Positions 5,955 through 36,763 of a stretch of DNA of 64,000 nucleotides are shown in pieces (position 1 is the first letter of the stretch; every line of letters starts with the position of its first letter). Position numbers and translations under genes: made by a program. The stretch is taken from the IMG/VR virus record IMGVR_UViG_3300021431_000104; one strand, given 5' to 3'. The notes beneath the pieces were generated by a model. It searched no databases and had not been told where the DNA came from. It saw nothing but the letters and a program-made list of their open reading frames with translations. This DNA is from an uncultured virus (IMG/VR IMGVR_UViG_3300021431_000104). Lineage: Duplodnaviria > Heunggongvirae > Uroviricota > Caudoviricetes.

Positions 5955-6269
5955 TTATACTGTAAAGATATTATCGGGATAAGAAGGTTTTGGATCCGAC
6001 TTAGGCCCTGGAACTATAAGTCCCTCTTCTACTAGATGGTTGTATCTTTTCTCTATCCATTGAGAGCATATATTAAGCTCTTCAGGATTTCTGGAGAAGT
6101 AATCTTGGAAGAAAGGTTCTATCCATTCTTTGATGTCATTCTCGAAACCTATAATACCGTTGTATTTCAAGGCTTCTACGAAGAGTGAATAACTATCCAT
6201 AGATACTGCTTCGTACCTGGATATAGCTCCTTTTTCCATAAGATAGTCGATAAGTTCTGATCTGTCCAT
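5955..6269 (-). CDS. Hypothetical protein
   Basis: 104-aa ORF. Confidence 0.75.
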   Translation of the reverse strand: MDRSELIDYLMEKGAISRYEAVSMDSYSLFVEALKYNGIIGFENDIKEWIEPFFQDYFSRNPEELNICSQWIEKRYNHLVEEGLIVPGPKSDPKPSYPDNIFTV

Positions 6270-6298
6270 AGTTTTAACAATTTTTAAGTGATTAATAA

Positions 6299-6646
6299 TT
6301 AAAGTTCTCCGTTGTTATGATAAATAACTGTAATGGTTGAGTCGTTATAGTGGATAGTAAGAGTTTCCAAATCATTGTAGATAGTTATGTGATTATTTTC
6401 CTGGAAAGCCTTACAGATATCCGAGTCAAGAGTTACTGCATGTATAATAGCTCGACCAAGTTGTTCGAGGTCTACTTCATCCGTTTTGAAAGACCAAGTA
6501 TCTACTATGATACAGGATTCATCTGGAAATGATTGTAAATTAGAGCTAATTAGCTCTAATCGTATATCCGAACTAAAGAAGTGCTTTTGGTAAAAGAAAG
6601 CTTTGTTTAGGTCTAAACCTGGAAATTTAATTGAATGATGTGTCAT
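6299..6646 (-). CDS. Acidic early hypothetical protein
   Basis: 115-aa ORF. Confidence 0.75.
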   Translation of the reverse strand: MTHHSIKFPGLDLNKAFFYQKHFFSSDIRLELISSNLQSFPDESCIIVDTWSFKTDEVDLEQLGRAIIHAVTLDSDICKAFQENNHITIYNDLETLTIHYNDSTITVIYHNNGEL

Positions 6647-6681
6647 AACTTAAAGGTGTTTTATAGTGTTAATAATGTTAT

Positions 6682-7086
6682 TTAGCCCATGACTATGTCT
6701 AGAGTAAAGTATTTGCAGATCTCTTTACCGTCTTCGTTTTTGATAATAAATGGCATACTGAATGAAGCCATGTCCAGGTCACCTTCAAGGTTACCGTTAT
6801 CACTGTATTCGTTTAGCATTTGTTCATGTGAATAGAAGCAATCGTCAAAACTGAAAGCATTTTGGTCATCGTTGAAATATATAGAAGCATAAAAGATGTT
6901 GTCTTGGATTCTTTTTTCGATAGCTTCGTGTATTTTATTAAGAGTTTGGAGAAAGTCTGCAGGCTTATTGTCATCGTCTACATCGGTATGAGCCTGAGGA
7001 ATGAAGCCTCTAGATACTGCATAGTTAGTTGCTTGCACCAGCATAAGGGTGATTGTGTTTGATTTGTGAAATTCGTTGTTGTTCAT
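6682..7086 (-). CDS. Acidic early hypothetical protein
   Basis: 134-aa ORF; ACAACAACAATG leader; first gene after the promoter. Confidence 0.8.
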   Translation of the reverse strand: MNNNEFHKSNTITLMLVQATNYAVSRGFIPQAHTDVDDDNKPADFLQTLNKIHEAIEKRIQDNIFYASIYFNDDQNAFSFDDCFYSHEQMLNEYSDNGNLEGDLDMASFSMPFIIKNEDGKEICKYFTLDIVMG

Positions 7087-9029: not shown

Positions 9030-9312
9030 TTCTTATATCCTTTTCTGGCTGATATTCTAGTAAGACAAGCTTCTTTAATACATATAGATTAAGTTCTAAA
9101 GAATAAGATACTGAATACCAAAGATCTTTTGGAGTATGTATCAAGGTAAGGGTTTGGCCCGAATACTGATCTTGGGTATAGTAATATTTTCCTTTCTTAA
9201 AAGGGAAATCCATATAAAGCCTATAAAAAGGCTTTATATGGAAAAGGTTACCATGAAGGTCAAGGATTTGGCTTTCCTTTTTTCGATGGTTTATTTTTTG
9301 TATTGTCTTCAT
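8998..9312 (-). CDS. Hypothetical basic protein
   Basis: 104-aa ORF overlapping its neighbours. Confidence 0.6.
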   Translation of the reverse strand: MKTIQKINHRKKESQILDLHGNLFHIKPFYRLYMDFPFKKGKYYYTQDQYSGQTLTLIHTPKDLWYSVSYSLELNLYVLKKLVLLEYQPEKDIRNGKRRNKSKQ

Positions 9313-9715
9313 CGGATTTTAATCTCTGGGATGATAAGGGCAAAAGGGAAGCCCATCTCTCTTGGGCAGTTTTCCTTTTAAAATCAATTTGATCCTGGAT
9401 ATGCTTAAACAAGGCTTTCCTGGTTTCTATTACGTAAGAAGCATAGAATACTCCCCATAAACCATTAGAAAGAGGCTTTTTACCGGATTCAACCAGAATA
9501 TCTGAAATCTGTTTGAAAACCTTTTGAGCATTCGTTACTTCCTTTTTAAAGGCACGATATTTAATATATCCAGTTTTACGATCTATACTATCAGAATTTC
9601 TCAGAGTTTCTTGAAAATCCTGTCCGAATCTCTGTATGAATTTACTCCGGTTAAAGTTATAACCCTTTTGATCCATTCGAAACATGTGTACATATTCTAC
9701 TGCTGAAAGTTCCAT
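9260..9715 (-). CDS. Hypothetical protein
   Basis: 151-aa ORF. Confidence 0.75.
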   Translation of the reverse strand: MELSAVEYVHMFRMDQKGYNFNRSKFIQRFGQDFQETLRNSDSIDRKTGYIKYRAFKKEVTNAQKVFKQISDILVESGKKPLSNGLWGVFYASYVIETRKALFKHIQDQIDFKRKTAQERWASLLPLSSQRLKSDEDNTKNKPSKKGKPNP

Positions 9716-10113
9716 TCTTGTTTAAAGTTTAAAGTTAAGTTACTTGGTAGGACTTGAAAAAGGTAGCCATGAAGGTCATCTTCATAGTAAGATTCCCATA
9801 AACAGCCATTTAGTTTAAAAGGTTCTAGACTACTAGCTCCCTTAGGTATACCTGTAATATACATGTGATGTAAGGTTTTATTCCAGGGTTTTAAACACTG
9901 GAAATACTGAGCAGGATCTGATTCTGAGCCTTTTTCAAAGAATCCCATAAGGTAATAGTCAGGCCAAGCTACACTATCCTTAGCTTTATCTAGGATAACG
10001 CAAGGATAAGCTATTTCACCTATCTTTACAGTAGGCTCTATAAACTTAGCCTCTTTTACTATAGGCATGTGACATTTACCTATATACGTATTATATACTA
10101 CTTGCTTATACAT
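9697..10113 (-). CDS. Hypothetical protein
   Basis: 138-aa ORF. Confidence 0.75.
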   Translation of the reverse strand: MYKQVVYNTYIGKCHMPIVKEAKFIEPTVKIGEIAYPCVILDKAKDSVAWPDYYLMGFFEKGSESDPAQYFQCLKPWNKTLHHMYITGIPKGASSLEPFKLNGCLWESYYEDDLHGYLFQVLPSNLTLNFKQEWNFQQ

Positions 10114-10403
10114 TCGTAAACGATTATATGAGTTACACCTTTAGATTCTATTACTTTACTATTACTCAGATTCATCTGTAAACCTTTGATAGTATCTCTG
10201 GAAAGTTTATCCATACGACCTTCCTTTCTTTCCTCTTCATAGAGACCATCCAGGTTTATGGTTCGTTTAACGGACGAGATGGTTCCAGAGAATATTATCT
10301 TAATGTCTTCAGACTCTTTGAGGTTATTAGAGAGTTGCTTGTAGGCATACTTACCCTTTACGTACTCTACCTTTACGCTTCTTAGGTTTTTCTTTGTGAA
10401 CAT
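10098..10403 (-). CDS. Hypothetical protein
   Basis: 101-aa ORF. Confidence 0.7.
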   Translation of the reverse strand: MFTKKNLRSVKVEYVKGKYAYKQLSNNLKESEDIKIIFSGTISSVKRTINLDGLYEEERKEGRMDKLSRDTIKGLQMNLSNSKVIESKGVTHIIVYECISK

Positions 10404-10665
10404 AAATTCTTACATTTTCTAGTTGGTCCTTTACTGTAGCTTGAACAAAGATGGATATAGGTAAGAAGAAGAAGTCCCTTATATTGTGATTGTCAATATA
10501 GAAGTCATACAACTTGTTGAACTTCTTCCTCGTTTTAAAGGTAATATCCTTAGATACTAAGTAACTCTTGATACAACGTTTGTGTAATTCAATAAGCTCC
10601 TTAAGATCTCTTCTAAGCTCTTTTTCAGTAAAAATGTGATATTTGACCGTAGGTTTCTTAACCAT
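10351..10665 (-). CDS. Hypothetical basic protein
   Basis: 104-aa ORF. Confidence 0.7.
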   Translation of the reverse strand: MVKKPTVKYHIFTEKELRRDLKELIELHKRCIKSYLVSKDITFKTRKKFNKLYDFYIDNHNIRDFFFLPISIFVQATVKDQLENVRIYVHKEKPKKRKGRVRKG

Positions 10666-10702
10666 AATTAGCCATAGTCGAAAGAGTTAAGAATGACTAT
10701 CC

Positions 10703-11197
10703 TTAGATAGCCATTCCTGGTTTAAGTACTTTAGCAGCATAGCTATCGAAAGCCTTCTTAGCAGACTTATATTCCTTGGAGGTTTGATCCTGGATGAATC
10801 GGTTCATTTCCCTTTCGAGTTTACGGTACTGATTGCGAACATCCTGTCTCCAAGCCTTTTTGAGGTCGTTAATAGAACGATTTGCCCTATCTGGGTATTT
10901 CTCCCTGAGTTCATCCTCTGAAGGGTAGTAGTATTTTACATCCCTTTCGGAAACGACTTGCTCCTTGATAGAGTTCTTCTGCTTTTTAGCAACTTCCTTG
11001 ACTACCTTGTCTTTGTTTTTCTTAGACTTAGAAGCAGGCAATTCTACGGTCTTAGCCTTAGCCTTTTTAGATTTAAGTTTCTTTTCCTTTTTGGAAGAAT
11101 CTTGGTTAGTAACTTCTGTTGTCTTAGCAACAGTTTCTGGGTTTTCTACCTGAGCAATGATCTGCTCCTTCTTGGTGTTGTTCTTCGTCTTTTTCAT
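10703..11197 (-). CDS. Lys-rich protein with a KYxYP motif (putative nucleic-acid binding)
   Basis: K-rich disordered N-terminal half; KYYYP...KKAWRQDVR. Confidence 0.75.
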   Translation of the reverse strand: MKKTKNNTKKEQIIAQVENPETVAKTTEVTNQDSSKKEKKLKSKKAKAKTVELPASKSKKNKDKVVKEVAKKQKNSIKEQVVSERDVKYYYPSEDELREKYPDRANRSINDLKKAWRQDVRNQYRKLEREMNRFIQDQTSKEYKSAKKAFDSYAAKVLKPGMAI

Positions 11198-20166: not shown

Positions 20167-21882
20167 TTAGGTAAATAGTATTTTCGACAGACCATCTTGT
20201 TTTACAACTTGCATAATCCTGGCTTTATGTAGAGGTAATGAAGAGTGATGGGAAATTAAGAAGAGACTTTTGTTTTCAAAGACTTTACTTATTAGGTTTA
20301 TGGCAGTCTCCAACACATCATCCGAAATTCCTTCGAATACTTCATCTAAAAAAGCTAAGTTTACTCCTCTAGCAGCAGTAAGTGTTTCATTCATTGCTAA
20401 AGCCATAGCAAGATTAACTAAAGAACGTTCTCCACCACTAAGTTCATCGTATTCTATAATTACGCCATTGTTTTCAATAAGTGTAACAAAGTCTTTTCTA
20501 GCTGATTCGAGATCTACTTCAAAGGATACTCTAAATCCTAAAATATCCGAATAATTAGCTAAAGTATCATTAAGTATAGATAAAGAAGAATCGAATAGGT
20601 ATGACTTTATACCATTATTACCTAATGGGTCTGAAATAAGCCAGTTATAGTTATTTAATTTGTTATTTACGGATTTCTGAAACTTCTTACATTGACTTAC
20701 CTTCTTATGATACTTATCATAACGATCTTTATACTTTGGAGATAATATCTTAGGCTTTTCTGACTCTAAATCCTTTATTTGTTTATCAATTGTACACATA
20801 TTGTCCGCTATACTAGCACACAACTGATCTAGATGATCATATTTTGATTTAATTTCCCTTAGGTTATATTTCCTTTGAGTAAGTTCCTCCTTCTCTTCTT
20901 GATACTTAGATATATCCTTGAAAGCCTTACGTAATTTTTTAAGTTTATCATATGCCTTTTCGTATTCTTTTTGTTTCAATAAACTCAAAATCTTAGAAAC
21001 TAAAGTCTCTAAGTTAAGCTGGGTACCTCTTTTAGCTTCACTAAGTAATTGGTTTAACTCTTTTAGCCTATTATCGGTCTTATTTATCTTGGTGTCTAAG
21101 GAAATAGCCACATTTTCTTTTTTACCCTTTTGAGTTTCCTGTAACTTCTTAGTTAACTCTAACCTTTTAGCTTTTAATTTCTGTTTACGCTTTTTAAAAT
21201 TCTCTTTCCAGTTCTTTTCATTATCTCTTAACTCTAAGTAAGTATTCTTAGCTTCTTCTGCATTAGTAGAGTATCTGTCTATCTTTTCTTCAATATCGTT
21301 AACTTCTATATTTAACTCTTTACGCTCATCATTGGCTAAATCTTTAGCTACATTCAAAAAGCTCAGGTCAAATATCTCCTCAAATAATTTTTTCTTATCC
21401 GTATTTGATTCCTGGATCAACCTTTTTAAACCCTGACCAAACATGATAGAATTTATGAACAATGGGTGAGTTAATCCTATCGTTTTCTCTATCTCTTTTT
21501 GTACCAATACTTTACCCTTTATATCTATAGGATAACCATCTTGATATAACAGTAGCTGATTGTTACCCTTTGAACTATCCTCTAGTAAACCTTTGTATTC
21601 TTGACACCTTATTATCTTAAAAACACCTTTAGAAGTCTGGTAGTTTATAGATACACATACACCCTTATAATTTTTAGGTTGATACTTAGACCAAGTTTTT
21701 ACATTAGATACTCCCTTTAAGTCTTTACCATAAAGTACCCAAGTAATAGCTGAAAAAATAGTAGATTTTCCACTACCTGTCGGACTGTTTATCCAAGTAA
21801 TACCTGGAGTATTTAACTGTAATTGAGTAGGTTCACAAATACTTCTAAAACCCTCTATGTTTATGGATAAAAATGTTAACAT
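20167..21882 (-). CDS. sbcC: SbcC/Rad50/gp46-like ATPase
   Basis: EGFRS, Walker A PTGSGKST, coiled coil, LSGGE signature, FLDE, ISH. Confidence 0.9.
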   Translation of the reverse strand: MLTFLSINIEGFRSICEPTQLQLNTPGITWINSPTGSGKSTIFSAITWVLYGKDLKGVSNVKTWSKYQPKNYKGVCVSINYQTSKGVFKIIRCQEYKGLLEDSSKGNNQLLLYQDGYPIDIKGKVLVQKEIEKTIGLTHPLFINSIMFGQGLKRLIQESNTDKKKLFEEIFDLSFLNVAKDLANDERKELNIEVNDIEEKIDRYSTNAEEAKNTYLELRDNEKNWKENFKKRKQKLKAKRLELTKKLQETQKGKKENVAISLDTKINKTDNRLKELNQLLSEAKRGTQLNLETLVSKILSLLKQKEYEKAYDKLKKLRKAFKDISKYQEEKEELTQRKYNLREIKSKYDHLDQLCASIADNMCTIDKQIKDLESEKPKILSPKYKDRYDKYHKKVSQCKKFQKSVNNKLNNYNWLISDPLGNNGIKSYLFDSSLSILNDTLANYSDILGFRVSFEVDLESARKDFVTLIENNGVIIEYDELSGGERSLVNLAMALAMNETLTAARGVNLAFLDEVFEGISDDVLETAINLISKVFENKSLFLISHHSSLPLHKARIMQVVKQDGLSKILFT

Positions 21883-23207
21883 AGTTTTTCACTTTTAGTT
21901 AATATATGTGTTAATAGGTTTAAACGGGTTTTATCTTTATCCCCCTGCTGTCTCATATATCTTCGAGCTAGTTGTTTTTTAGTAAGTTGCTTTGTAATTT
22001 TATGTTTAGTTTCTACAGATTTACTAGATAGCTTGGGTATTACTGTATAATAATTGCCATCTTCTTTAATTTCGGATTCATCATATACATCGATGAATTT
22101 AGGGTAATCGGTTAATTCTTTAAACTTCATGGATAGATCAGAGTATAAGATCCAATACCCCAACTTACTACCATTATCAGTCCTACGTTGCTGATAGGGG
22201 CAACCTATCATATACATCTTCTTACCTAATCTCTGAGGTTTATGTATATGACCACATAAAACTAAATCAAACTTATTAAGTATATTTAAGTTTAAATTTT
22301 CTACAGAATCTATAACCCTACCATCGTTATCTGAAGCTCCTGGGTAATCAGTATGTAACATCAATATATGTTTAGACCTTGACTTACCTATGTTTACGTT
22401 TATTTTCTTTAAGTATTCACTTAAACCAATATTATGGTCTATATAAGGTACACCGTGTATATAAAATTTACCTATATGTAACCTATCAAAATCTATACAC
22501 TTTAAAAACTTAAAAGTATTTGCAAACCTTGATACCCAACTAGAAGGTTTTTCATTTATCCTATTTATGTGATTACAACAGTGATTACCACTTATTGAAT
22601 ACAAGGTCCAATCCTTTTGGTCCAGTAGATTAAATTCATATTGTACTCTATCAAAAAGTTCAGCAGATATAGACTCTGGTCTATGAAAAAGATCTCCGCA
22701 ATGTAATACAGGTATATTAAGATCTACAGACATATCTGATATGTAGTCTAGTATCTTGAAAGCCGAATCTAACCTACTAGGCCATTTACCCCAATCATTG
22801 ATATGTAAATCTGATATTACTATGAACTTAGGTCTTTTTTTACAACCCAGTCTATCTTCTTTCATAGCCTGGTTGGTATTTTCTTGAGCAGTATACCAAC
22901 ATAAGTTTAACACATTATTATTAGCCCTATTATTATCTAAATGACCTACTATAGGCTTAAATAATGGATTTGGTATATAGGCTTCGGCTACTAATCTATG
23001 TATATAAGCCCTACGTATCTTATTTTGAGACCTTATTTTTAATACAACCTGTTTATATCCATTTGATCTAGTATAGGCTTTTAAGGGATTATATTTATTA
23101 CCAAGAGTATGTTTGCCTTTTATCCACCTACTATAAACCACTCCTTCCCTGGATATATGATACCCAGGGAAGTCTCTTATATTATCAATCATTTCTCTTT
23201 TGGCCAT
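21876..23207 (-). CDS. sbcD: SbcD/Mre11-like nuclease with an N-terminally fused NUMOD4-HNH domain
   Basis: SDLH, GDLFH, GNH and GHIH metallophosphoesterase motifs, preceded by GYHISREG...HRLVAEAYIPNP...HLDNNRANNNVLNL.W...EN. Confidence 0.85.
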   Translation of the reverse strand: MAKREMIDNIRDFPGYHISREGVVYSRWIKGKHTLGNKYNPLKAYTRSNGYKQVVLKIRSQNKIRRAYIHRLVAEAYIPNPLFKPIVGHLDNNRANNNVLNLCWYTAQENTNQAMKEDRLGCKKRPKFIVISDLHINDWGKWPSRLDSAFKILDYISDMSVDLNIPVLHCGDLFHRPESISAELFDRVQYEFNLLDQKDWTLYSISGNHCCNHINRINEKPSSWVSRFANTFKFLKCIDFDRLHIGKFYIHGVPYIDHNIGLSEYLKKINVNIGKSRSKHILMLHTDYPGASDNDGRVIDSVENLNLNILNKFDLVLCGHIHKPQRLGKKMYMIGCPYQQRRTDNGSKLGYWILYSDLSMKFKELTDYPKFIDVYDESEIKEDGNYYTVIPKLSSKSVETKHKITKQLTKKQLARRYMRQQGDKDKTRLNLLTHILTKSEKLC

Positions 23208-23911
23208 ACTATATCTACCTTTAGTTCTTCAGCTATTATCCTCTCCCTAGTTAACAACTCGGGTTCATCTATAATCATAACCTCTACTTTACCATATAGT
23301 GAAGTTAGGTAACCTACCTTATAACCTCCATAATCAAGATACTTTGGAGGTCTTATTAAACCTTGTGATATTCTCTCTATAGTACAATTAAAGTGTACTC
23401 CCCAATTATCAAGGATCATCAACATTATGGAAGAGATTTCTGCCTGAAAGTACTTATTTAATATGCGTTTATTATTATCCTCCATTACCCAGTTTTTTAC
23501 CATATAAGGAGTAAAGTTGAGTACTATGAGTTGATCACAAGTTTGACATAAACACATCTTACACAAATCTAAGAAGTGTTCTAACTCACATTGTGGTATA
23601 GTATCAGCTTGCTTATATAAAAAATAAGCTGCAGAATCAAGAAAACTTCTATCAGATACATAACTATCTTCTGAAAACTTCTTTTTTCTTAGATTTAGTA
23701 TCTGGAAATCTTGCCTATATAGCTCAGACTTATCATGAGCTAACATATCTTTATGAAGCTCTTCTTTTGTACTGGGTAATAGGTCAGAAACACTACCAGA
23801 TATAAATGGCCATTCTGGTTGATCTCCTTTACCTATAGAGCTAACATACTTAGCTAAAGTAGTTTTACCTATCCCGGAAGGACCTGCGAATTGAATACGA
23901 TTTTTTATCAT
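23189..23911 (-). CDS. P-loop nucleotide (dNMP) kinase
   Basis: GPSGIGKTT and SDRSFLD motifs. Confidence 0.75.
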   Translation of the reverse strand: MIKNRIQFAGPSGIGKTTLAKYVSSIGKGDQPEWPFISGSVSDLLPSTKEELHKDMLAHDKSELYRQDFQILNLRKKKFSEDSYVSDRSFLDSAAYFLYKQADTIPQCELEHFLDLCKMCLCQTCDQLIVLNFTPYMVKNWVMEDNNKRILNKYFQAEISSIMLMILDNWGVHFNCTIERISQGLIRPPKYLDYGGYKVGYLTSLYGKVEVMIIDEPELLTRERIIAEELKVDIVWPKEK

Positions 23912-24795
23912 TTGTTTAAGTTTTTAAATGGTTTGATAAAGATATCAGTTAGGAAAGAGTTAAAGGAGTATTCTATACATACCTCCCTGAATTTAGTGTA
24001 GTTTATCTTACTTATTGTATATAATTTTAGTACACCCTCATGATTTAACTTATGGGTATTAACAAACCACTTCAAGTCTATAAGCTGTTTATTACGTCCA
24101 TAAATTTCTTTCATTTTTTGATCTTCATTTAGCTCTAGATATTTATCTATTGTCCCCCACTTATCAAGAAATTTACGAGCTTTAACAGGACCAATACCAG
24201 GAACACCAGGTATATCATCTGAATTATCTCCAACAAGGCAAAGATAATCCACCGTTTCTTCTGGGTCATACCCAAACAATTCCTTACAATTAGTTTGTCT
24301 AACATACTCTTCTTTTCTTGGATTAAATATCTTAACTCTATCATTAGTAAGTAATTGATTAAAATCCTTATCTGAAGATACTATAGTTACTAACCATTCT
24401 GGGCTTATTACTTTAAAATATAGGTATGCTAAGAAATCATCACCCTCATAAACTGTAGTTTTATGTTTATCAAATACATATTTAATTCTTAGATACCTAA
24501 GGATCTTAAAGATAACCTGTTTTTGTTTAATAAGAGATTCTCTATCATAGGAGATATTTACTCGATGACCTTTATAATTTGGTAGTAACTTATCTCTTAA
24601 AGGAGAATGACCATTATCAAAAGTAATATATACATCATCAGGGTTAAACCTATCTATGTACATATGTAAAGATTTGAAAAATCCAAAGATAGCTCCACTG
24701 GGTTTACCATCAGTACTCTTTAATTTTTCGAATTTATGGAATGACTGGTGAAGGATGTTTTCACCATCGACTAATAATACCCTCTTTCTAGCCAT
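23908..24795 (-). CDS. 5'-3' exonuclease / flap endonuclease
   Basis: LLVDG, YKGHR, EGDD, SSDKDF, GDNSDDIPGVPGIG. Confidence 0.92.
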   Translation of the reverse strand: MARKRVLLVDGENILHQSFHKFEKLKSTDGKPSGAIFGFFKSLHMYIDRFNPDDVYITFDNGHSPLRDKLLPNYKGHRVNISYDRESLIKQKQVIFKILRYLRIKYVFDKHKTTVYEGDDFLAYLYFKVISPEWLVTIVSSDKDFNQLLTNDRVKIFNPRKEEYVRQTNCKELFGYDPEETVDYLCLVGDNSDDIPGVPGIGPVKARKFLDKWGTIDKYLELNEDQKMKEIYGRNKQLIDLKWFVNTHKLNHEGVLKLYTISKINYTKFREVCIEYSFNSFLTDIFIKPFKNLNK

Positions 24796-25231
24796 AGTAT
24801 TTATCTTTTAGTTTAATTATCCATTCTTTCACTTGTTCATAGTTCTCCTCTACTAGTCCAACTAATATGATGGATATATACTCTTCATACTCAAACTGTC
24901 TACGGAAATCCTCTACTAAATCGAGTAAGTACTTCTTCCTACTAATTCTACCCATAAAGCTTATTACCTTCTTGGGTTTATTAGTATTACCTACTCCTAC
25001 TTTTAATTCTTTAGACATTTGAGCTATATGTATGGCTTTATTCAAATCTTCTTCACCATTCTTATAGAGAAACCTTGAAACATATTTTAAGATCTCTCCT
25101 TGAAACCAGTTAAAATTAAAAGCGGTGAACACCATTACTGGCTCTATTTTAAACCTTTCATAGTGTTCACCACCTACTTGACATTCTTTAGTTTTCGTCT
25201 TCATCGTCTTCAGCATCACTAAATGATTCAT
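24788..25231 (-). CDS. DUF3310 / T7 gp1.7-like protein (likely start 25204)
   Basis: QVGGEHY...GEILKYVSR...KNGEEDLNKA. Confidence 0.8.
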   Translation of the reverse strand: MNHLVMLKTMKTKTKECQVGGEHYERFKIEPVMVFTAFNFNWFQGEILKYVSRFLYKNGEEDLNKAIHIAQMSKELKVGVGNTNKPKKVISFMGRISRKKYLLDLVEDFRRQFEYEEYISIILVGLVEENYEQVKEWIIKLKDKYYG

Positions 25232-27461: not shown

Positions 27462-27860
27462 TTAGATATTTTTATTTTGTTGAACATAAATGATCTCATT
27501 GAAAGCCAATACCGTGAATTCCCATTTATCTTCGGATAATTCTATACCAGCTTCTTTAACCTCCTCCCAAAGATCTACTTCCTTGCCAGCATATAAACCG
27601 TAAGTAACTATCATACCAGGATCCTTTAATAATGGCTTATAGGTATTATACTCCTCAGTAATAGGTCCTGCAAAAATTACAGCACCCTCACGAGGCATAC
27701 CTTCTTTAGTATTACCCGGTACAATAATTGAACCTACCTTTGTATCTTGATCTTTTGGACTTAATATTAGAACTCTATTTTCAGTTGGGGTTCCAGTATT
27801 ACTTAAATAATTAGCTAGCTTGCAAGCTAACTCAGTTGAGATGTGATTTAATTTGAACAT
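27462..27860 (-). CDS. groES: Co-chaperonin GroES/Cpn10
   Basis: NRVLI...TKVGSIIVP...EGAVIFAGP...YAGKEV...EII. Confidence 0.85.
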   Translation of the reverse strand: MFKLNHISTELACKLANYLSNTGTPTENRVLILSPKDQDTKVGSIIVPGNTKEGMPREGAVIFAGPITEEYNTYKPLLKDPGMIVTYGLYAGKEVDLWEEVKEAGIELSEDKWEFTVLAFNEIIYVQQNKNI

Positions 27861-28311: not shown

Positions 28312-28508
28312 ATGTGTTCTGTGGTTAAATTAGTACTTGGATTACCTTTATGTTTAATAAGTATACCACAACTGGGACATTCTACAACTATCTCATTAAG
28401 TGATTTAACAAAAAGTAGGTCTGATGCTTGATATTCAAACTCGGTATCACAGCAACTACACATAGCCCTGTATTTCTTAATATTTCCCTGCCTTAAAATC
28501 TTCTTCAT
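28308..28508 (-). CDS. Zn-ribbon protein
   Basis: CSCC...CPSC. Confidence 0.7.
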   Translation of the reverse strand: MKKILRQGNIKKYRAMCSCCDTEFEYQASDLLFVKSLNEIVVECPSCGILIKHKGNPSTNLTTEHI

Positions 28509-30771
28509 ACTTCTTTATCTCTTTAGAGTATATCTGATTATACTGACTTGTATCTATATCTTTGAACTTTTTATGTAGTTCAAGGTAAGCATCTACCTCA
28601 AAATCTGGCTCTAACATTTTCCTATAATCATACCCAGGTATAAAGGGTAATTCTTCAGCCATAGACCTTCCAACAGTAAAGTCCATGGAGAGATCTACGT
28701 CATTTATCTGGAAGCCAAAGTATTTTTTAGTACTCGGGTTACGTAGTATTTCCCAAAAAGCAGATATGGTCCATGTGTTAATATATTCTGGTTTAGTATT
28801 TAGATAAATAGCATCATGTACAGTAGCTACTTCATCCATTTTAGGAAATTTACCTTGTCTCATCGCCCAGTAAATAAGTACTGAACCAAAAGCAGTTAAA
28901 CAACTGGCAGCTGATTGACAAGGGAAATTTAAACCAAGTCTGATAGCATAAGCTTGTTCATCTGGATTTCCGTATATCTGAGGTAATCTACGTTTAGCTC
29001 CGAAGAGTGAAACTAAATACCCATGTTTTTTAAGGAATCGTTCTTGTTTATTCTTAAACTTTTGAAGAGCAGGATGTTCTTCGAAGTATTCATCCATCTG
29101 TATTTTAGCTTCCTCTTTAGTTACCACTATACCAGCTTTTGGATCTGATAGTTTAACAGCTAGTAATCCTGGACCTATACCATATATAAGTCCAAAAGCT
29201 AACTGTTTAGCTTGTTTTCGTCTTATTTTCCAAAGTTTATGGTCTGGGTGGTTTTCATCATCCAACATTACCTTAGCTTCTTGATAAGGTATGTTGTATT
29301 TTTTACAGGCAATAGCTAAGTGTGGATCTTCTCCATTAGCAAAAGCTTTAAGATAAGTCTGATCTCCAGCTAGGTGAGCCATTACTCTTAATTCAGCCTG
29401 AGAATAGTCGAATACCAAATAGAGTTTACCCTTTGGAGCTACTAATTGCTTTTTAATATTTGGATCTACAGTAGTTTTTGGGATCTGTTGCATATTTGGA
29501 TCCTGAGAACTAAATCTCTGGGAAGTAGTACCATGTATTAAGTATCTACCATGTAATCTACTATCATCTTGAATTTTCTCACTCCAACCTTCTATAAAGG
29601 TAGTATACATTTTTTGAAGACCCCTTAAATCTAAGAGGTTATCCAAAAATATAGCTTTTGGATTTGTTGGTTTCTTTACAGTTAACCTTAATTGTTGTAA
29701 AGTTTCTTCTGCTGTAGAGGGATTACCAGTTTCTGTAAAAGTTTCACAATTAAAACCAAAACCTTCTACACTGTAGATGAGTAAAGGTAAATCTTTTGGA
29801 GAGCCTAAGTTTACAGGATTAGTTAACTCCCTTTCAGTTTTATTACTGTAAATACCCAACCTTACGTTAGCTATTTTTTGTTCTCGAGTAGCTATCTTCT
29901 TTTCTATACTAACTTTATTATCAGCCTCTTCATATTGATCATTTAACTCATCTATTTCTCTTTGTATCTTTTGGATATACTTTTCAGTTCTTTGCTCTAC
30001 TAAATACTTATGAAAACGTTTTACTTTTGGCAGATTTAGAATAGTATCTAGAGCTTTTTCAATCTTTTGCTTATATTCTATGAGTAACTTTTCATTAAAT
30101 GCTCTGTCAATATATAAACCATTAGTTTCCACTGATTGTAAAACCCTTGAACAACACATCGTAAAATTACGATAATAAGAGTATAGGTTTAAATCTATAA
30201 GCTTTTTCTCAAAGAATATACCGAGTCTAAAAGTATAGTCTGTATCTTGACCACCATATTGACAAAGTTCCTCTAAGGGTTTCTTATCCCAAGGTATCTT
30301 ATCAAAACCTCGAGAAGATTCATAATTACCATACTCTGGTAGATACCTTCTAACCATACTCTTAAGATCATTGGGTCTTTCTTCATTAAGTATGTACTTA
30401 GCTAACATAGCATCTATAAGAGTACCTCTGTAGTATATATGATATAATTGGAATATCTGTAAATCAAACTTAGCATTCCAAGCTAACTTAATTACAGAAA
30501 CGTTCTCGATGAGTTCATGACCTATCTTAGATATTGCCCATTTAGAAGAATAACTAATACCATACTCTTCCCTTTGGAAGTGATCTAAAACAATATTACA
30601 AGCAAAACCTGCTTGAAAGGTGATAGATACTATGGTGGGCTTAAAATCTTTGGTATATATAGGTTTACCATTAGTCTCAAAGTCGAAACTACAGTAACCC
30701 AGGGATATACAGGATTTAATTAGTTGCCTAACTTCAGCTTTAGTGGTTAATATTTTGGTTTTTGTTCTCAT
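28477..30771 (-). CDS. polA: Family A DNA polymerase with 3'-5' exonuclease
   Basis: DFET, NAKFD and YGGQD exonuclease motifs; PNMQQIP, DYSQAELR, AKQLAFGLIYG, VHDA. Confidence 0.95.
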   Translation of the reverse strand: MRTKTKILTTKAEVRQLIKSCISLGYCSFDFETNGKPIYTKDFKPTIVSITFQAGFACNIVLDHFQREEYGISYSSKWAISKIGHELIENVSVIKLAWNAKFDLQIFQLYHIYYRGTLIDAMLAKYILNEERPNDLKSMVRRYLPEYGNYESSRGFDKIPWDKKPLEELCQYGGQDTDYTFRLGIFFEKKLIDLNLYSYYRNFTMCCSRVLQSVETNGLYIDRAFNEKLLIEYKQKIEKALDTILNLPKVKRFHKYLVEQRTEKYIQKIQREIDELNDQYEEADNKVSIEKKIATREQKIANVRLGIYSNKTERELTNPVNLGSPKDLPLLIYSVEGFGFNCETFTETGNPSTAEETLQQLRLTVKKPTNPKAIFLDNLLDLRGLQKMYTTFIEGWSEKIQDDSRLHGRYLIHGTTSQRFSSQDPNMQQIPKTTVDPNIKKQLVAPKGKLYLVFDYSQAELRVMAHLAGDQTYLKAFANGEDPHLAIACKKYNIPYQEAKVMLDDENHPDHKLWKIRRKQAKQLAFGLIYGIGPGLLAVKLSDPKAGIVVTKEEAKIQMDEYFEEHPALQKFKNKQERFLKKHGYLVSLFGAKRRLPQIYGNPDEQAYAIRLGLNFPCQSAASCLTAFGSVLIYWAMRQGKFPKMDEVATVHDAIYLNTKPEYINTWTISAFWEILRNPSTKKYFGFQINDVDLSMDFTVGRSMAEELPFIPGYDYRKMLEPDFEVDAYLELHKKFKDIDTSQYNQIYSKEIKKYEEDFKAGKY

Positions 30772-30852: not shown

Positions 30853-31650
30853 TTAATTACTTGTGTTAGTATCAGAAGCTAGATCATCTATAGAGGTTTT
30901 AAGCTTCCACCAATCCCTCTGATAAGAATGTAAACTTCCTATTTGATGATACAAATAACCGTGTTCAACTCCTACTTTATCTGCTACATACTCCATAAGA
31001 CTCCAAGCTAGATATACATCATCTCCGAAGTGCTCACAAAAATCGGATGAACGCTGATTATAAATAAGGTGACATACCTTTTCTCCCTTAGAGTTTGGAC
31101 GTATAAGGAATTGATAATACATAGAACAGGGTATACGAGCTCTACCATCAAGTCTACCACTATCTATTTCCGAATCAAAGATACTTAATACAGCTTTACG
31201 AGTATCTGGATCATATTTTAATAACCTAATGATATCTTCTAAGTAAGTTTGACATGAGAGATCTTTACCATCATTAAACTTATTAGAAAAAACAGGGTCG
31301 TTTATTCGTTCAGCATAGGTATAGTCAAACTTATTATGCTTATTCAAAAACTCTTCCCACATGGGCTTGTTTAATTTCCAAGCCTCTCCAGGATTTATCT
31401 GTTTACCTGAAACTCTTTCCTTAAATTCAGCATCAGCCCATTCTTTAGTGTTTGTATAAACGAATAACCACTCTAAATCTGTAAGTGAAGTTAAGCAATA
31501 ACTCTCAGCTATAAGCTCTTTGGTTATAAAATCGGGATTACCCTCGATATTTTTATTTTGATAGGTTTTGGGCTTATTTTCAATTCCCATCTCCCATAGA
31601 TTTCTGCCAGTTTCTGACATCAATTCGTAAGCGTTACAATAGATTCTCAT
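30853..31650 (-). CDS. Thymidylate-synthase-fold enzyme of dCMP-specific type (dCMP hydroxymethylase/methylase-like)
   Basis: DPDTRKA, PC, QRSSDFCEHFGDD (Asp at the Asn177-equivalent position), GSLHSY. Confidence 0.85.
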   Translation of the reverse strand: MRIYCNAYELMSETGRNLWEMGIENKPKTYQNKNIEGNPDFITKELIAESYCLTSLTDLEWLFVYTNTKEWADAEFKERVSGKQINPGEAWKLNKPMWEEFLNKHNKFDYTYAERINDPVFSNKFNDGKDLSCQTYLEDIIRLLKYDPDTRKAVLSIFDSEIDSGRLDGRARIPCSMYYQFLIRPNSKGEKVCHLIYNQRSSDFCEHFGDDVYLAWSLMEYVADKVGVEHGYLYHQIGSLHSYQRDWWKLKTSIDDLASDTNTSN

Positions 31651-31654
31651 ACCT

Positions 31655-32566
31655 TTACTGTTTATTTTGTTTCTTTAAATATTGAGTTTTAAACTTTTTC
31701 CTCTGGCTATAAGAAATACACTCTTCTGGATAAGGTATGCCCTCATCATACTCTAAGAGCATATCTTTAGCATACAGAGGTTTATATTCATATAGATCTG
31801 GTCTTATAACTTTGAATGAGCGGAAAAATACTTTAAAACTTGAGAACTGTTTCTCATCTCCAGTCTTATATTTCTTAAATACTTCCTTTACGTGTTTAGT
31901 CCAAGGGTTTTTATGACCTTTTAATACCTTTTTTAGGGGTTTGTAAGCATCATACATCATAAGTGTCTCAACATTACCATACATCTGAGTACAGAATAAG
32001 TTAAGTTGAACAGTTTGATCTGGACCATACACGTATTCAGCCATTCTTTGAACTAAAAGGAAGTCAAAAATCAACCTTTTAGTAATCTCTGAAGCTCTAA
32101 GGATCATAGTTAATACAGGTACATCCTCTTGGAAGCGTTTAGAGAAGGTAACTGCTAGTAAACATTGCTTACCATTATCATGGCGATTGTTAAATACATA
32201 ACTATGATTGTAATTTTGATTATACCTAGCTTTAAGATCTCTCAATCGGCTACGCATAAGATCAAGTTTATTAAAATCAATGTAGTTATTTAACAATGAA
32301 GTCCACTTGGTAGCAGTATAGTTAAATACTCGACCATAATTAAATTCTGGGTCTACATAAGCCTTACGTATCTTAATAAATACATTGTATACTGTAGCTA
32401 AACCAGAATTAGCTAACCCACCTTTCTCAAAAAGTAGGGGATCTATGGTCAAAAACATCTCATTGAGCTTTTCCCAAGCCTCTTGGGAAGTTGAAAATTC
32501 GAGGGAATGTACTCCCTCTTCTAAATTAAACTGTATACCCTCTAAGGGTCTGTTCCATCCGCTCAC
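31655..32566 (-). CDS. Divergent second thymidylate-synthase-fold protein
   Basis: TSQEAWEKL, KQCLL, LRASEITKRLIFD; GTG start coupled to the upstream TAG. Confidence 0.7.
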   Translation of the reverse strand: MSGWNRPLEGIQFNLEEGVHSLEFSTSQEAWEKLNEMFLTIDPLLFEKGGLANSGLATVYNVFIKIRKAYVDPEFNYGRVFNYTATKWTSLLNNYIDFNKLDLMRSRLRDLKARYNQNYNHSYVFNNRHDNGKQCLLAVTFSKRFQEDVPVLTMILRASEITKRLIFDFLLVQRMAEYVYGPDQTVQLNLFCTQMYGNVETLMMYDAYKPLKKVLKGHKNPWTKHVKEVFKKYKTGDEKQFSSFKVFFRSFKVIRPDLYEYKPLYAKDMLLEYDEGIPYPEECISYSQRKKFKTQYLKKQNKQ

Positions 32567-33477
32567 TAGTAATTACTTTTAATTCTGAACTGATTAACTA
32601 AATGCTTTTTATACCTTAACTGAAGTAGAGAGTTTGGGTTGAATCCAATAAAATGGAAATAACCCATTAATTCGAGAAAAGCTATAACCACCTCTTCCTG
32701 GAACCTTTGTTCATCGGTAATTTCTCCAGTTTGTTTCCAAGGCTTGTTTTTAAGGAAGTTACGTGCTACTGAAAGGTGATAAGTTAATTCCCAGCACATC
32801 TTAGCCTCACCATCATGGGTAGACCAGGATATCCTACGGAAAGCAGGAATATATGAAGCTACTTTGTCGTAATCCTTGATATTAAAGTTATCAAATAATG
32901 TAGGATTAAAGATATCCCAAGCCCAAGCACAAACATGAATAAGATTAATATCGAACCTACTCTGTAGTATACCAAAACCTACTTTCATAATGAACTGAGT
33001 AGATATACCATCTTCATCTGTATTTGGATCCACTAGTACATGTAACCTCTTACTAAGGATATAAGACTTTATATCATCTACTCCAATATTACTGTACAAG
33101 AGTAAATTTATAAAGAAAGCTATAGCATCTGCTTGCTCCTCATTCGAATTCTGTAGGTGATTTAAGAGTTGCTGATAATTTTCTTTAGTCCACTTAGGAG
33201 AATTAAAATTATAACCTAAACTGTCCATCATTTGAAGTACTAGTGTAGTAGATTCATAACCTTCACCTAATTCCTCTATAACCCTGGCTGACATGTCTTT
33301 AAGAATAGCTTGGGCTTTACGAGTATTAACATTTAAAGGCCACTCTGGAAGACCTTCTATGGGTAAATACTCCTTTAACAGTGAACTTTGGAGCTCAAAC
33401 ATTTTCTCGAGCTCCTTACCTTGTTCACATATACATTTTTCATTTACGAAATTTCTACAATCCATGTTATTGAACAT
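32566..33477 (-). CDS. All-alpha NTP pyrophosphatase, T4 gp56 dCTPase/dUTPase-like, internally duplicated
   Basis: MFELQ, EELGE, EEQADAIAFF, KPWKQ, EEVV, YKKHLVNQFRIKSNY. Confidence 0.75.
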   Translation of the reverse strand: MFNNMDCRNFVNEKCICEQGKELEKMFELQSSLLKEYLPIEGLPEWPLNVNTRKAQAILKDMSARVIEELGEGYESTTLVLQMMDSLGYNFNSPKWTKENYQQLLNHLQNSNEEQADAIAFFINLLLYSNIGVDDIKSYILSKRLHVLVDPNTDEDGISTQFIMKVGFGILQSRFDINLIHVCAWAWDIFNPTLFDNFNIKDYDKVASYIPAFRRISWSTHDGEAKMCWELTYHLSVARNFLKNKPWKQTGEITDEQRFQEEVVIAFLELMGYFHFIGFNPNSLLQLRYKKHLVNQFRIKSNY

Positions 33478-34033
33478 TATCCGTTGAACCTTGCCAATTA
33501 CTACCTCTTTCTGACCAATCAGAAGCTAGATATTCAAACTCATCACCAGTTATCTTTTTAGGCTCTGTAAGAAGTACTGGTACATGAATAAACTGAAGGA
33601 TAGCTTTATTAAAGTCTATCTCTTGTGATTGGTGTGTAGTGTTTATTATACTCAGATGTATTTCACCTGTATAAGTTGAATCTACTATCTCTGCTCCATA
33701 GATTAAACCCTTTTTAGTAGAAATACCAGACTTATTGGCAGCCATAAGCATAGATTCTGCTGGTTTTATTAAAGCTCTTACTCCAGAAGGTATTAAAACT
33801 CTAGAACCGGCTCCCAAGGTAATTCCAGTTACTACCTTTACAGGAACATCTCCAGACCTATCTTCATCATAATCAAAGATAACACCCATCTGAGGATTTA
33901 TCTTTTCCATCTCCTGTAAATCAAGATCCTTAGGTATAAAAAAATCTATACCTGCTTCTCTTTTAGAAGCTCTACGAGGTTCTCTTACATCTCTACATAA
34001 ACAATACTGAATACTTATTTCCCTACTTTCCAT
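33467..34033 (-). CDS. dut: Trimeric dUTPase
   Basis: AGIDF, IPSG, KSG, IVDSTYTGEI, Q, RGSNWQGST. Confidence 0.9.
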   Translation of the reverse strand: MESREISIQYCLCRDVREPRRASKREAGIDFFIPKDLDLQEMEKINPQMGVIFDYDEDRSGDVPVKVVTGITLGAGSRVLIPSGVRALIKPAESMLMAANKSGISTKKGLIYGAEIVDSTYTGEIHLSIINTTHQSQEIDFNKAILQFIHVPVLLTEPKKITGDEFEYLASDWSERGSNWQGSTDNVQ

Positions 34034-35842: not shown

Positions 35843-36763
35843 TTAATTCTTTTTAAATCTTTCCACAATATCAAAATCAATCCAACAAGGTCTGTGATCT
35901 GATAAACCTTTTGGACCATATCCACAACCATTAACTACTACCTTAGTTAAAGAATATGTAGGATTTATTACAAAGATCCTATCCAGACTATGCTTTGGGA
36001 AAGGTTGAAGGACTTCTGATACATTAGGGACTCCTGATACATTAGTATGTTCACTTAGAGGTTTGATAAGATACTCATTTATAGTTTCTTCATCCATCTC
36101 TGAAGAAGAGCAATTAGTGTCTCCCATTATAATCATAGGATGAGCTGGTGAAGAGAGGTCTAGTTTATAATCTATATAAGTTACTAATTGAGTAAACTGC
36201 TTTCTTCTAGTTTCTGAATCCTCAATATCATCTCTTTTTTCTGAAGCATCTGCATGAAGAACATATACGGTTAGATAACCATAATCTATATGATGTAATT
36301 CATATCTCCTGAAGCCCTTTCTAGTAAGCTTATCATTACAATGAGAGAAATATCCATAAGAGTCCTTCCATTCTACGATATCCTCTTTTACAATCACCCA
36401 AATTCCAGCAATGAAGAGATTTAGTCCATCAGATTTATACCTAAACCACTTTACCATAGAGAATATCTTTGAGAAATCTATAGCACCCATGAATGTACCA
36501 GTTGAAAAACCTTTGAGGTAAGAGATAAGCTGATAATGATAATTAAAATCCTCCTGAACTCCTACAATATCAAACTTAGAATCAGAAAGATACTTACTGA
36601 TATCATAAGTTTTTTCTGACCTATTCTCATTATCATTGAGTGATACAAGAGTAGTACCCTTAATTAACTTGTATACCCATACACAAGGTTTGAAGATCCA
36701 AGGGAGATCATTTAAATCCAAGGTCTCTGGGAGACCATCTACGTTGTAAGTTACTAATTTCAT
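35843..36763 (-). CDS. EEP-family phosphoesterase (sphingomyelinase-like)
   Basis: TYNVDGLP, VQEDF, SDGL, KGF, HAD, GDTN, LDRIF, SDH. Confidence 0.8.
   Translation of the reverse strand: MKLVTYNVDGLPETLDLNDLPWIFKPCVWVYKLIKGTTLVSLNDNENRSEKTYDISKYLSDSKFDIVGVQEDFNYHYQLISYLKGFSTGTFMGAIDFSKIFSMVKWFRYKSDGLNLFIAGIWVIVKEDIVEWKDSYGYFSHCNDKLTRKGFRRYELHHIDYGYLTVYVLHADASEKRDDIEDSETRRKQFTQLVTYIDYKLDLSSPAHPMIIMGDTNCSSSEMDEETINEYLIKPLSEHTNVSGVPNVSEVLQPFPKHSLDRIFVINPTYSLTKVVVNGCGYGPKGLSDHRPCWIDFDIVERFKKN

Follow-up and report, generated by a model that had tools for sequence, protein, structure and literature searches.

What does a phage gain from a second, strongly divergent protein of the thymidylate synthase (TS) fold when a complete TS homologue is encoded directly beside it? 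This question is raised by a 64,000-nucleotide (nt) stretch of DNA from an uncultured virus of the Caudoviricetes (IMG/VR record IMGVR_UViG_3300021431_000104), referred to here as the window, in which one gene of the minus strand, here called X, is followed by the gene of an Asp-type (cytosine-type) TS homologue, here called the companion TS (Table 1). The TS fold is a classic enzyme scaffold, and its reactions underlie most phage pyrimidine hypermodifications. An earlier note on the window had taken X for a divergent TS-fold paralogue of its neighbour that might form a heterodimer with it or act in sequence with it. We found that X has the TS fold, keeps the core needed for covalent catalysis while appearing to have shed much of the folate-binding part, and was never found without one particular cytosine-type TS subfamily. 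X is best read as a second, active C5-pyrimidine enzyme that depends on the companion TS. The chances seem to us about even that it is a catalytically active, heavily remodelled member of the TS/deoxycytidylate (dCMP) hydroxymethylase fold and a fixed part of a pre-replicative cytosine-nucleotide module of the phage, and these phages probably perform pyrimidine chemistry that has not yet been described.

The sequence of X carries almost no trace of its fold. BLASTP revealed no match between X and the companion TS, phmmer found nothing for X in the PDB, and Pfam has no family for it; PF00303, the family of canonical ThyA, was detected in none of 76 relatives at E ≤ 0.1. The sole family match was to PHROG 34294, to which no function is assigned there. 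When a wide alignment of the gut-phage X family was used as a profile (A1), the only TS-like sequence hints were AfhB-type chains at E ~1, to which the R...D segment and the N-terminal helix could be aligned. The AlphaFold2 (AF2) model of X, built from 76 homologues, had a mean predicted local distance difference test score (pLDDT) of 93.2 and a predicted template modelling score of 0.90, and its top Foldseek matches in the PDB were all TS-fold proteins, namely MilA, AfhB and T4 dCMP hydroxymethylase (E ~1e-4). VIA-align scored the model at Z 13.8 against AfhB (9iqu; root-mean-square deviation 3.8, 179 residues aligned), 12.4 against MilA and about 10 against canonical TS. Moreover, in a structure search independent of Foldseek only 7 of 48,161 representative PDB chains reached Z ≥ 5, all seven of them TS-fold, and the eighth had Z 4.5. 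The TS fold of the modelled protein is no chance resemblance. The TS fold claimed earlier is thus borne out by the AF2 model, Foldseek and VIA-align where Pfam and BLASTP gave no signal, and one of the outcomes that would have refuted the earlier reading, a protein without the TS fold, did not occur.

The residues conserved in X point to catalysis. In the alignment of 76 sequences Cys135 (in GKQC), Arg157 (in RASE), Asp168 (11 residues after the Arg), Lys87, Trp88, Leu91 and Tyr95 were invariant. When 12 members from cultured phages were aligned jointly with these, Tyr95, Cys135, Arg157 and Asp168 were unchanged in 88 of 88 sequences, and position 87 was Lys or Arg in all of them. Position 160, at the D169 site where the Asp of TS contacts the pterin, was Glu in 82 of the 88, a conservative exchange, and Tyr in five Muddy-type members. 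A basic residue occupied position 249 in most members, among them 11 of the 12 from cultured phages, with Arg249 near-invariant. The conserved set includes Lys87, Tyr95, Cys135, Arg157/Glu160, Asp168, Tyr205 and Arg249, in a family whose members share 15-25% overall identity. Comparison of the X and companion TS families with hhalign paired C135 with C175, R157 with R200, E160 with D203, D168 with D211 and Y205 with Y243, precisely in the register to be expected, as a local match only (probability 17%, E 0.0015). The R-x-x-D/E-x7-D spacing was identical in X, in the companion TS and in the canonical-looking ThyA of phage PaMx74.

These alignments bear out the earlier assignment of the Cys of KQC to the catalytic site, of RASE to the Arg of the RSxD motif and of a cytosine-type Asp, the three residues being those that align with C175, R200 and D211 and do not vary in the 88 sequences. 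The reported loss of the HxY motif holds for the His, whose site is occupied by Met203, and does not hold for the Tyr, as 158 of 168 unique sequences retain Tyr205. The lack of an RR/RK motif is true as stated: at the presumed sites of the trans-acting Arg pair of TS (R126'/R127') the X family has no conserved RR or RK, and the features of TS that X lacks include the cis Arg21 as well. A clade-specific K112-x-R114 lies approximately where RR would fall; it is conserved in the single-copy clade only (with Lys or Arg at 114), the two positions being E and N in the 'up' paralogue of tandem pairs and variable in the 'down' paralogue. Gly132, three residues before the Cys and thus at the L143 site, is inside the invariant G-K-x-C of the closer family.

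In tandem pairs (62 'up' and 50 'down' unique sequences) both paralogues keep K87, W88, Y95, C135, R157, E/D160, R164, D168, R174 and R249. Because four residues are invariant at such low identity and both duplicated copies keep them, we consider X to be probably active on a cytosine mononucleotide; with the catalytic set retained in both copies, an active enzyme is favoured over a dead partner subunit, and a subunit of purely structural function would have no use for an invariant Cys nucleophile. The same evidence bears on the proposal that X is a non-catalytic nucleotide binder, serving as a sensor, as a scaffold for deoxynucleoside triphosphate synthesis or as an inhibitor of host ThyA through mixed dimers. 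Such a role would suit a strongly remodelled fold from which several canonical TS residues are gone and in which no cofactor site can be identified. However, the invariance of Cys, Arg, Asp and Tyr in 88 of 88 sequences is hard to explain without catalysis, as is their persistence after duplication, and we therefore give this proposal only a small chance.

The survey of gene neighbourhoods, which had been suggested in the earlier note, revealed a strict coupling of X to the companion TS. Among 162 sources (161 metagenomic loci and the window) the numbers of X and companion TS genes were one and one in 85, two and one in 74, one and two in two, and two and none in a single locus, whose contig ends inside the second X gene. 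In 161 of 161 informative cases the two genes shared a strand and X was the upstream one. The gap between them was zero or less in 72 of these; nine had a spacer of 1-20 nt, 19 one of 21-100 nt, 49 one of 101-500 nt and 12 one of more than 500 nt. Overlaps are overstated here by open reading frame (ORF) calls that use the earliest possible start, and the metagenomic loci, which represent two related phage groups, are not independent of one another. All six representative loci inspected had their genes in one order: a trimeric dUTPase-like protein, a dUTPase_2/MazG-like protein, one or two copies of X, the companion TS and PolA.

Cultured phages were reached by searching deposited genomes with distant X members and then with the neighbouring TS. 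In each of the 12 deposited phage records opened, the hypothetical gene that immediately precedes the annotated thymidylate synthase belongs to the X family. These records were Clostridium phage CPD4, Brevundimonas phage Strzyga, Serratia phage Serbin, Mycobacterium phage Muddy (gp47), Gordonia phage GTE2 (orf39), Streptomyces phage Zuko (gp75), Microbacterium phage Huwbert (gp65), Curtobacterium phage Shrew (gp74), Pseudomonas phage PMBT14, Yersinia phage P744, Manatee Spring phage ctfzr933 and Desulfofustis phage MD02. Their cassette comprises a deoxynucleoside monophosphate (dNMP) kinase, a MazG/dUTPase_2-type nucleoside triphosphate (NTP) pyrophosphohydrolase, X, TS, often a gene of the dCMP-deaminase family, and DNA polymerase I. 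The MazG-like gene preceded X in all six representative loci and in 11 of 12 cultured-phage cassettes, with ctfzr933 having it further upstream, and PolA followed TS in every cassette inspected.

In a collection of 50,697 phage records, the companion TS subfamily was detected in 116 (Strzyga TS as query, E ≤ 1e-8): Gordonia 68, Clostridium 10, Mycobacterium 9, Serratia 6, Pseudomonas 5, Streptomyces 4, two each under Brevundimonas, Caudoviricetes, Microbacterium and Phage, and six more. Three X queries together also returned 116 records (85 + 18 + 13), with counts for the named genera equal to those of the TS tally, plus six singletons. Since the tallies and not the record lists were matched, this agreement is strong and is not record-level proof. 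The pairing held in 161 of 161 loci and in 12 of 12 phage records, with tallies of 116 and 116, and the functional partnership of X and the companion TS is strongly supported by their genomic distribution. The exclusive association with one TS subfamily speaks for a mutual dependence of the two proteins.

One form that this dependence could take is an asymmetric heterodimer. TS-fold enzymes are obligate dimers whose subunits share active sites, and X and the companion TS might pair through the usual sheet-to-sheet interface, the companion TS lending its invariant Arg151/Lys152 so that the phosphate site of X becomes complete, or X tuning the companion TS, to give one two-subunit enzyme. The perfect co-occurrence and adjacency of the genes would be expected in this case, and the X stop codon and the ATG of the companion TS are separated by 4 nt in the window, with stop-start overlaps or tiny spacers also in Strzyga, GTE2, Zuko, PMBT14, ctfzr933 and Serbin, which suggests translational coupling. 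The arginines are likewise distributed in a suitable manner: X has no conserved RR pair, and R151 is present in 118 of 119 unique companion TS sequences, the remaining one having a gap. On the other hand, the companion TS has a full catalytic set of its own that would need trans Arg residues, which X does not conserve. The gap between the genes exceeds 100 nt in 61 of 161 loci and extends up to 902 nt, at times with inserted genes, and one clade has two X genes per companion TS, so that X:X' dimers would fit equally well. No fused or longer X-TS forms were found among 1,570 candidates, which is weak evidence, and a Pfam search of nine longer X members for fused domains gave no credible hit. 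We know of no TS-fold heterodimer. We consider a heterodimer rather unlikely.

The companion TS is a complete TS: it keeps R151/K152, R172-x-P-C175, R200-S-S-D203, D211 and H241-x-Y243, so that the earlier statement that both motifs are retained in the neighbour was correct. Its AF2 model had pLDDT 91, and VIA-align over residues 1-257 gave Z 21.9 with AfhB, 21.7 with MilA and about 20 with Escherichia coli TS. In TS the folate-binding small domain (E58, W80/W83 region) is carried by the segment between the second and third core strands. In the secondary-structure (DSSP) strings of the two AF2 models, this segment, taken from the second long strand to the strand preceding the catalytic loop, was about 50 residues long in X (69-118), compared with about 100 in the companion TS (54-153). 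The last core strand of X is followed by about 100 residues of helices, which include the near-invariant Arg249, that of the companion TS by about 20 residues. Judging from these models, the folate site appears to have been lost in X. Because the small-domain segment is halved and X has a C-terminal helical subdomain of its own with Arg249, we infer that methylene-tetrahydrofolate is not used by X in the canonical way.

This has consequences for the view that X is a redundant or alternative folate-dependent C5 one-carbon transferase with the ordinary chemistry of a dCMP methyltransferase or hydroxymethylase. As would suit such an enzyme, X has Cys, Arg and a cytosine-type Asp on a TS fold, and the X homologues of Yersinia phage vB_YenM_P744 (L174, 3001-3834) and Manatee Spring phage ctfzr933 (L175, 2909-3679) were labelled 'pyrimidine hmase synthase' by their depositors. 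From these two labels it appears that annotation pipelines had noticed the TS-like nature of the protein and not its function. However, the folate small-domain segment is approximately halved in X, PF00303 is absent from all 76 members, the structural similarity to TS is Z ~10 for X versus ~20 for the companion TS, and redundancy is hard to square with the finding that every genome strictly keeps both genes. An ordinary transferase is accordingly improbable in our judgement.

Could X instead act on polymeric DNA? The long basic C-terminal extension described earlier is real, forming helix 286-302 in the AF2 model, and it could bind DNA if X modified cytosines in polymeric nucleic acid after replication, as the earlier note had considered possible. 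Beyond the tail we found no support for this idea. X family lengths range from 211 to 360 amino acids (aa), and many members of 211-260 aa, with lengths down to 211-253 aa, are without the basic tail. In addition, the other enzymes of the module (NTP pyrophosphohydrolase, kinases, deaminase) are of the mononucleotide type, and the sugar-contacting Tyr and the phosphate-clamping Arg are kept. To our knowledge, no TS-fold enzyme acts on polymers, and we regard this possibility as very remote.

The X family proved to extend far beyond gut phages. A word-indexed search returned 362 X proteins, and an exhaustive search among 50%-identity representatives returned 133, of which 59 were at E ≤ 1e-30; members occur on viral contigs by the hundred and in no fewer than 116 phage genomes deposited so far, with carriers among phages of Actinobacteria, Proteobacteria and Clostridia and among gut phages. 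When four whole records were translated in six frames and searched with the A1 profile, each yielded a single match, precisely at the gene upstream of TS (CPD4 1e-35, Serbin 6.6e-13, Muddy 1.1e-5, Strzyga 7e-5). By hhalign, the Serbin-type alignment (6 sequences) matched A1 with 98.5% probability (E 2.4e-15, 225 columns) and the Muddy-type alignment (5 sequences) with 98.0% (E 1.9e-13, 228 columns), while their probabilities against the companion TS profile were 0.7% and 10%, respectively. The distant X member P0239, used as a query, found no relatives in IMG/VR.

The position of X among characterised TS-fold systems was assessed with the help of PMC13326640 and 10.1101/2024.12.05.627091. The TS fold supports methylation, hydroxymethylation and flavin-dependent hydroxylation, and TS homologues with Asp at the N177 site act on dCMP (PMC13326640; 10.1101/2024.12.05.627091). 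Flavin-dependent hydroxylation of pyrimidine mononucleotides has been known since 2025-26. Flavin-dependent 5-hydroxy-dCMP synthases of the TS fold exist, for which D169N is diagnostic (PMC13326640). The residues at the N177, L143 and D169 sites predict the substrate and product of TS homologues, a hydrophobic residue at the L143-type site going with methylation and an acidic one with hydroxymethylation (PMC13326640). X has Asp at the N177 site, Gly at the L143 site and either Glu or Tyr at the D169 site, a combination that fits none of the classes described there. The companion TS has an invariant Arg at residue 172, three residues before the catalytic Cys (R-x-P-C); the published rules do not predict its product, because Arg stands where a hydrophobic or acidic residue is expected.

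The nearest solved structure to X is AfhB, the dCMP hydroxylase of phage HY126 (9iqu and 9iqc; Z 13.8 and 13.4, about 179 residues aligned). Like X, AfhB is a small TS-fold protein with Asp at the N177 site, and it acts on dCMP. Unlike AfhB, X has an additional C-terminal subdomain of about 90 residues, and the identity between the two is about 9%. AfhB, RB69 gp48 and DLP3 gp80 are flavin-dependent 5-hydroxy-dCMP synthases, and their D169N is not present in X, which has Glu160 or Tyr at this site; a function of X as a 5-hydroxy-dCMP synthase was rejected on this ground. The deoxycytidylate hydroxymethylase gp42 of T4 (1b5d, 6a9a) and the CMP (cytidylate) hydroxymethylase MilA (5jnh) have in common with X the TS fold, the Cys nucleophile and the cytosine-type Asp. 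Moreover, in the gp42-type pathway a dCTPase and a dNMP kinase are placed ahead of the polymerase, as in the X cassette, whereas hydroxymethylases have an acidic residue at the L143 site, where X has Gly132 (PMC13326640). X differs from gp42 and MilA also by having no sequence-level match to them, a shortened small-domain segment and a second complete TS homologue that is always present.

The 5-methyl-dC module of the Xp12/PaMx74 type (NTP pyrophosphohydrolase, Asp-type ThyA, dCMP-deaminase family, polymerase) resembles the X cassette in its logic and its neighbours, and its gene order recurs in the cultured X carriers; PRA-PH, TS, deaminase and PolA domains were reported by MetaGPA as co-localised in modified contigs (10.1101/2024.12.05.627091). 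In PaMx74, cited as a phage that replaces C with 5-methylcytosine (10.1101/2024.12.05.627091), the pyrophosphohydrolase directly abuts a canonical-looking N177D ThyA, and three X profiles found no X at E ≤ 1 among 447 ORF fragments of the first 50 kb. Xanthomonas phages were absent from the X tallies and from the named genera of the companion TS tally (six organisms being unnamed there); X-type modules use the companion TS subfamily, which is distinct from the PaMx74-type TS. X shares with canonical ThyA (PF00303) the core sheet and helices (Z ~10, about 170 residues) and equivalents of Cys146, Arg166 and Tyr209. It differs in having Asp for Asn177, no RR pair, no equivalent of His207, a shortened folate-binding region and no Pfam match. 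A role as a phage dTMP (thymidylate) synthase was rejected, given the Asp at the N177 site and the occurrence of a true ThyA (locus L133) or ThyX (ctfzr933) in phages that also carry X.

If X is an active enzyme acting on a cytosine mononucleotide, its reaction may be pictured as follows. Arg157 would clamp the 5'-phosphate, Asp168 would read the N3/N4 face of cytosine and Tyr205 would touch the 3'-OH of the sugar, while Cys135 would add to C6 of deoxycytidylate and Tyr95 would serve the C5 position. X might act on the product of the companion TS or take another co-substrate. The outcome would be a C5-modified dC nucleotide, phosphorylated by kinases and incorporated by the phage polymerase, and the module would follow the gene order seen in the cultured phages, from the dNMP kinase through the MazG-like NTP pyrophosphohydrolase, X, the companion TS and, in many cases, the dCMP-deaminase-family enzyme to the family A DNA polymerase. 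More tentatively, X and the companion TS could jointly make an undescribed cytosine derivative, either as the first known TS-fold heterodimer or by means of a folate-independent (e.g., flavin-using) X that re-works a C5 group installed by the companion TS; this seems to us less likely than not. In that case the DNA or nucleotide pools of well-used cultured carriers (Muddy, about 68 Gordonia phages, PMBT14, Serbin and CPD4-like phages) would contain a non-canonical cytosine that has so far gone unnoticed.

Several points weigh against reading X as an active enzyme of this module. Within the window, nothing shows that virion DNA is modified. The residue roles rest on a low-probability local profile alignment and on matching secondary structure, and Tyr95 is presumed to be the equivalent of TS Tyr94. 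Because the Muddy-type branch has Tyr in place of Glu160 and not all members have Trp88, the cofactor-side chemistry may differ between branches or be absent. The lack of a conserved RR pair means that a homodimeric X would have an unusual phosphate site. Furthermore, five of seven deaminase-associated Asp-type TS homologues made 5-methyl-dCMP with only T4 gp1 and no X-like partner (10.1101/2024.12.05.627091); these homologues may or may not belong to the companion TS subfamily. The literature searched contained no biochemical work on any X member: no study of X was found in that on AfhB, on Clostridium perfringens phages, on Muddy and on PMBT14/Serbin-type phages, and a term search of the Yersinia P744 paper found mention neither of these genes nor of DNA modification.

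Domain-based surveys of modification cassettes would miss X, because it is invisible to Pfam. If active, X would extend the repertoire of the TS fold by a new reaction or a new quaternary arrangement, and it would predict an unrecognised modification of DNA or of the nucleotide pool in cultured phages, one of which is used therapeutically.

Table 1. X, the companion TS and other genes of the window (positions are those of the window)
Feature	Position	Strand	Length and matches
X, divergent TS-fold protein	31655-32566	minus	single ORF, 303 aa, GTG start
Companion TS, Asp (cytosine)-type complete TS-fold homologue	30853-31650	minus	265 aa; Pfam PF00303 1.4e-13
All-alpha MazG/dimeric-dUTPase-like nucleoside triphosphate pyrophosphohydrolase	32566-33477	minus	303 aa; PHROG 12184 2.2e-16, PHROG 173
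Trimeric dUTPase/dCTP-deaminase-like protein	33467-34033	minus	188 aa; Pfam dUTPase 2.3e-8, PHROG 135
Family A DNA polymerase, downstream end of cassette	28477-30771	minus	764 aa; PHROG 17 2.6e-99
DUF3310-type nucleotide kinase	24788-25231	minus	147 aa; PHROG 236 'nucleotide kinase' 3.8e-14, Pfam DUF3310 4.5e-8
P-loop kinase-like protein	23189-23911	minus	240 aa; PHROG 761 1.4e-6, Pfam AAA_28 5.3e-6

The window is part of a contractile-tailed phage, as judged from its tail sheath, tube, baseplate and tape measure proteins, and its replication module includes a primase, a DnaB-like helicase, a UvsX-like recombinase, a single-stranded DNA-binding protein (SSB) and the family A polymerase; its nearest relatives are uncultured phage contigs of about 85-88 kb. 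The coordinates given earlier for X match one ORF exactly, and its GTG start shares 1 nt with the stop codon of the gene upstream (TAGTG). The MazG-like protein, which has a weak Pfam dUTPase_2 match, may by analogy be a dCTPase that supplies dCMP to the module. Homologues of the trimeric dUTPase-like protein at related loci have weak matches to the DCD family too. The DUF3310-type kinase is a candidate dNMP kinase for the modified nucleotide, and the P-loop kinase-like protein has weak thymidylate kinase similarity.

Additional TS-fold genes were observed at some X loci. The ThyA at L133 (3668-4639) is full-length and canonical (PF00303 1e-78) and is located between two X paralogues, giving four TS-fold genes in a row. 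In L144 and L145, an ORF directly upstream of X (~6014-6982) matched the companion TS profile at E ~6e-4 and did not match the X profile; it may be an additional divergent TS-fold gene. In Microbacterium phage Huwbert (L171, 4400-6045), the adjacent gp67 and gp68, downstream of X, are both annotated as thymidylate synthase and are followed by a dCMP deaminase. A gut phage with two X genes and the companion TS (L081, MT121964.1) encodes downstream of the latter (9125-10745) an IspD-type cytidylyltransferase (1.4e-26) and a LicD-family phosphotransferase (8e-39), and the two together suggest that a phospho-alcohol activated by cytidine diphosphate is transferred, perhaps to DNA or to a host surface polymer.

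Three further genes of the minus strand of the window are worth recording. Just upstream of the nucleotide cassette, a 306-aa ORF (35843-36763) has a match to the endonuclease/exonuclease/phosphatase family PF03372 at 3e-4, below the curated cut-off, and no PHROG match. An SbcD-like nuclease subunit (21876-23207) matches PHROG 100 over residues 111-390 and PHROG 59 and 959 over residues 3-186, with an apparent N-terminal HNH endonuclease domain. Between the polymerase and SSB genes, a 132-aa ORF (27462-27860) matches the family of GroES-like co-chaperonins (Pfam Cpn10, 6.2e-7).

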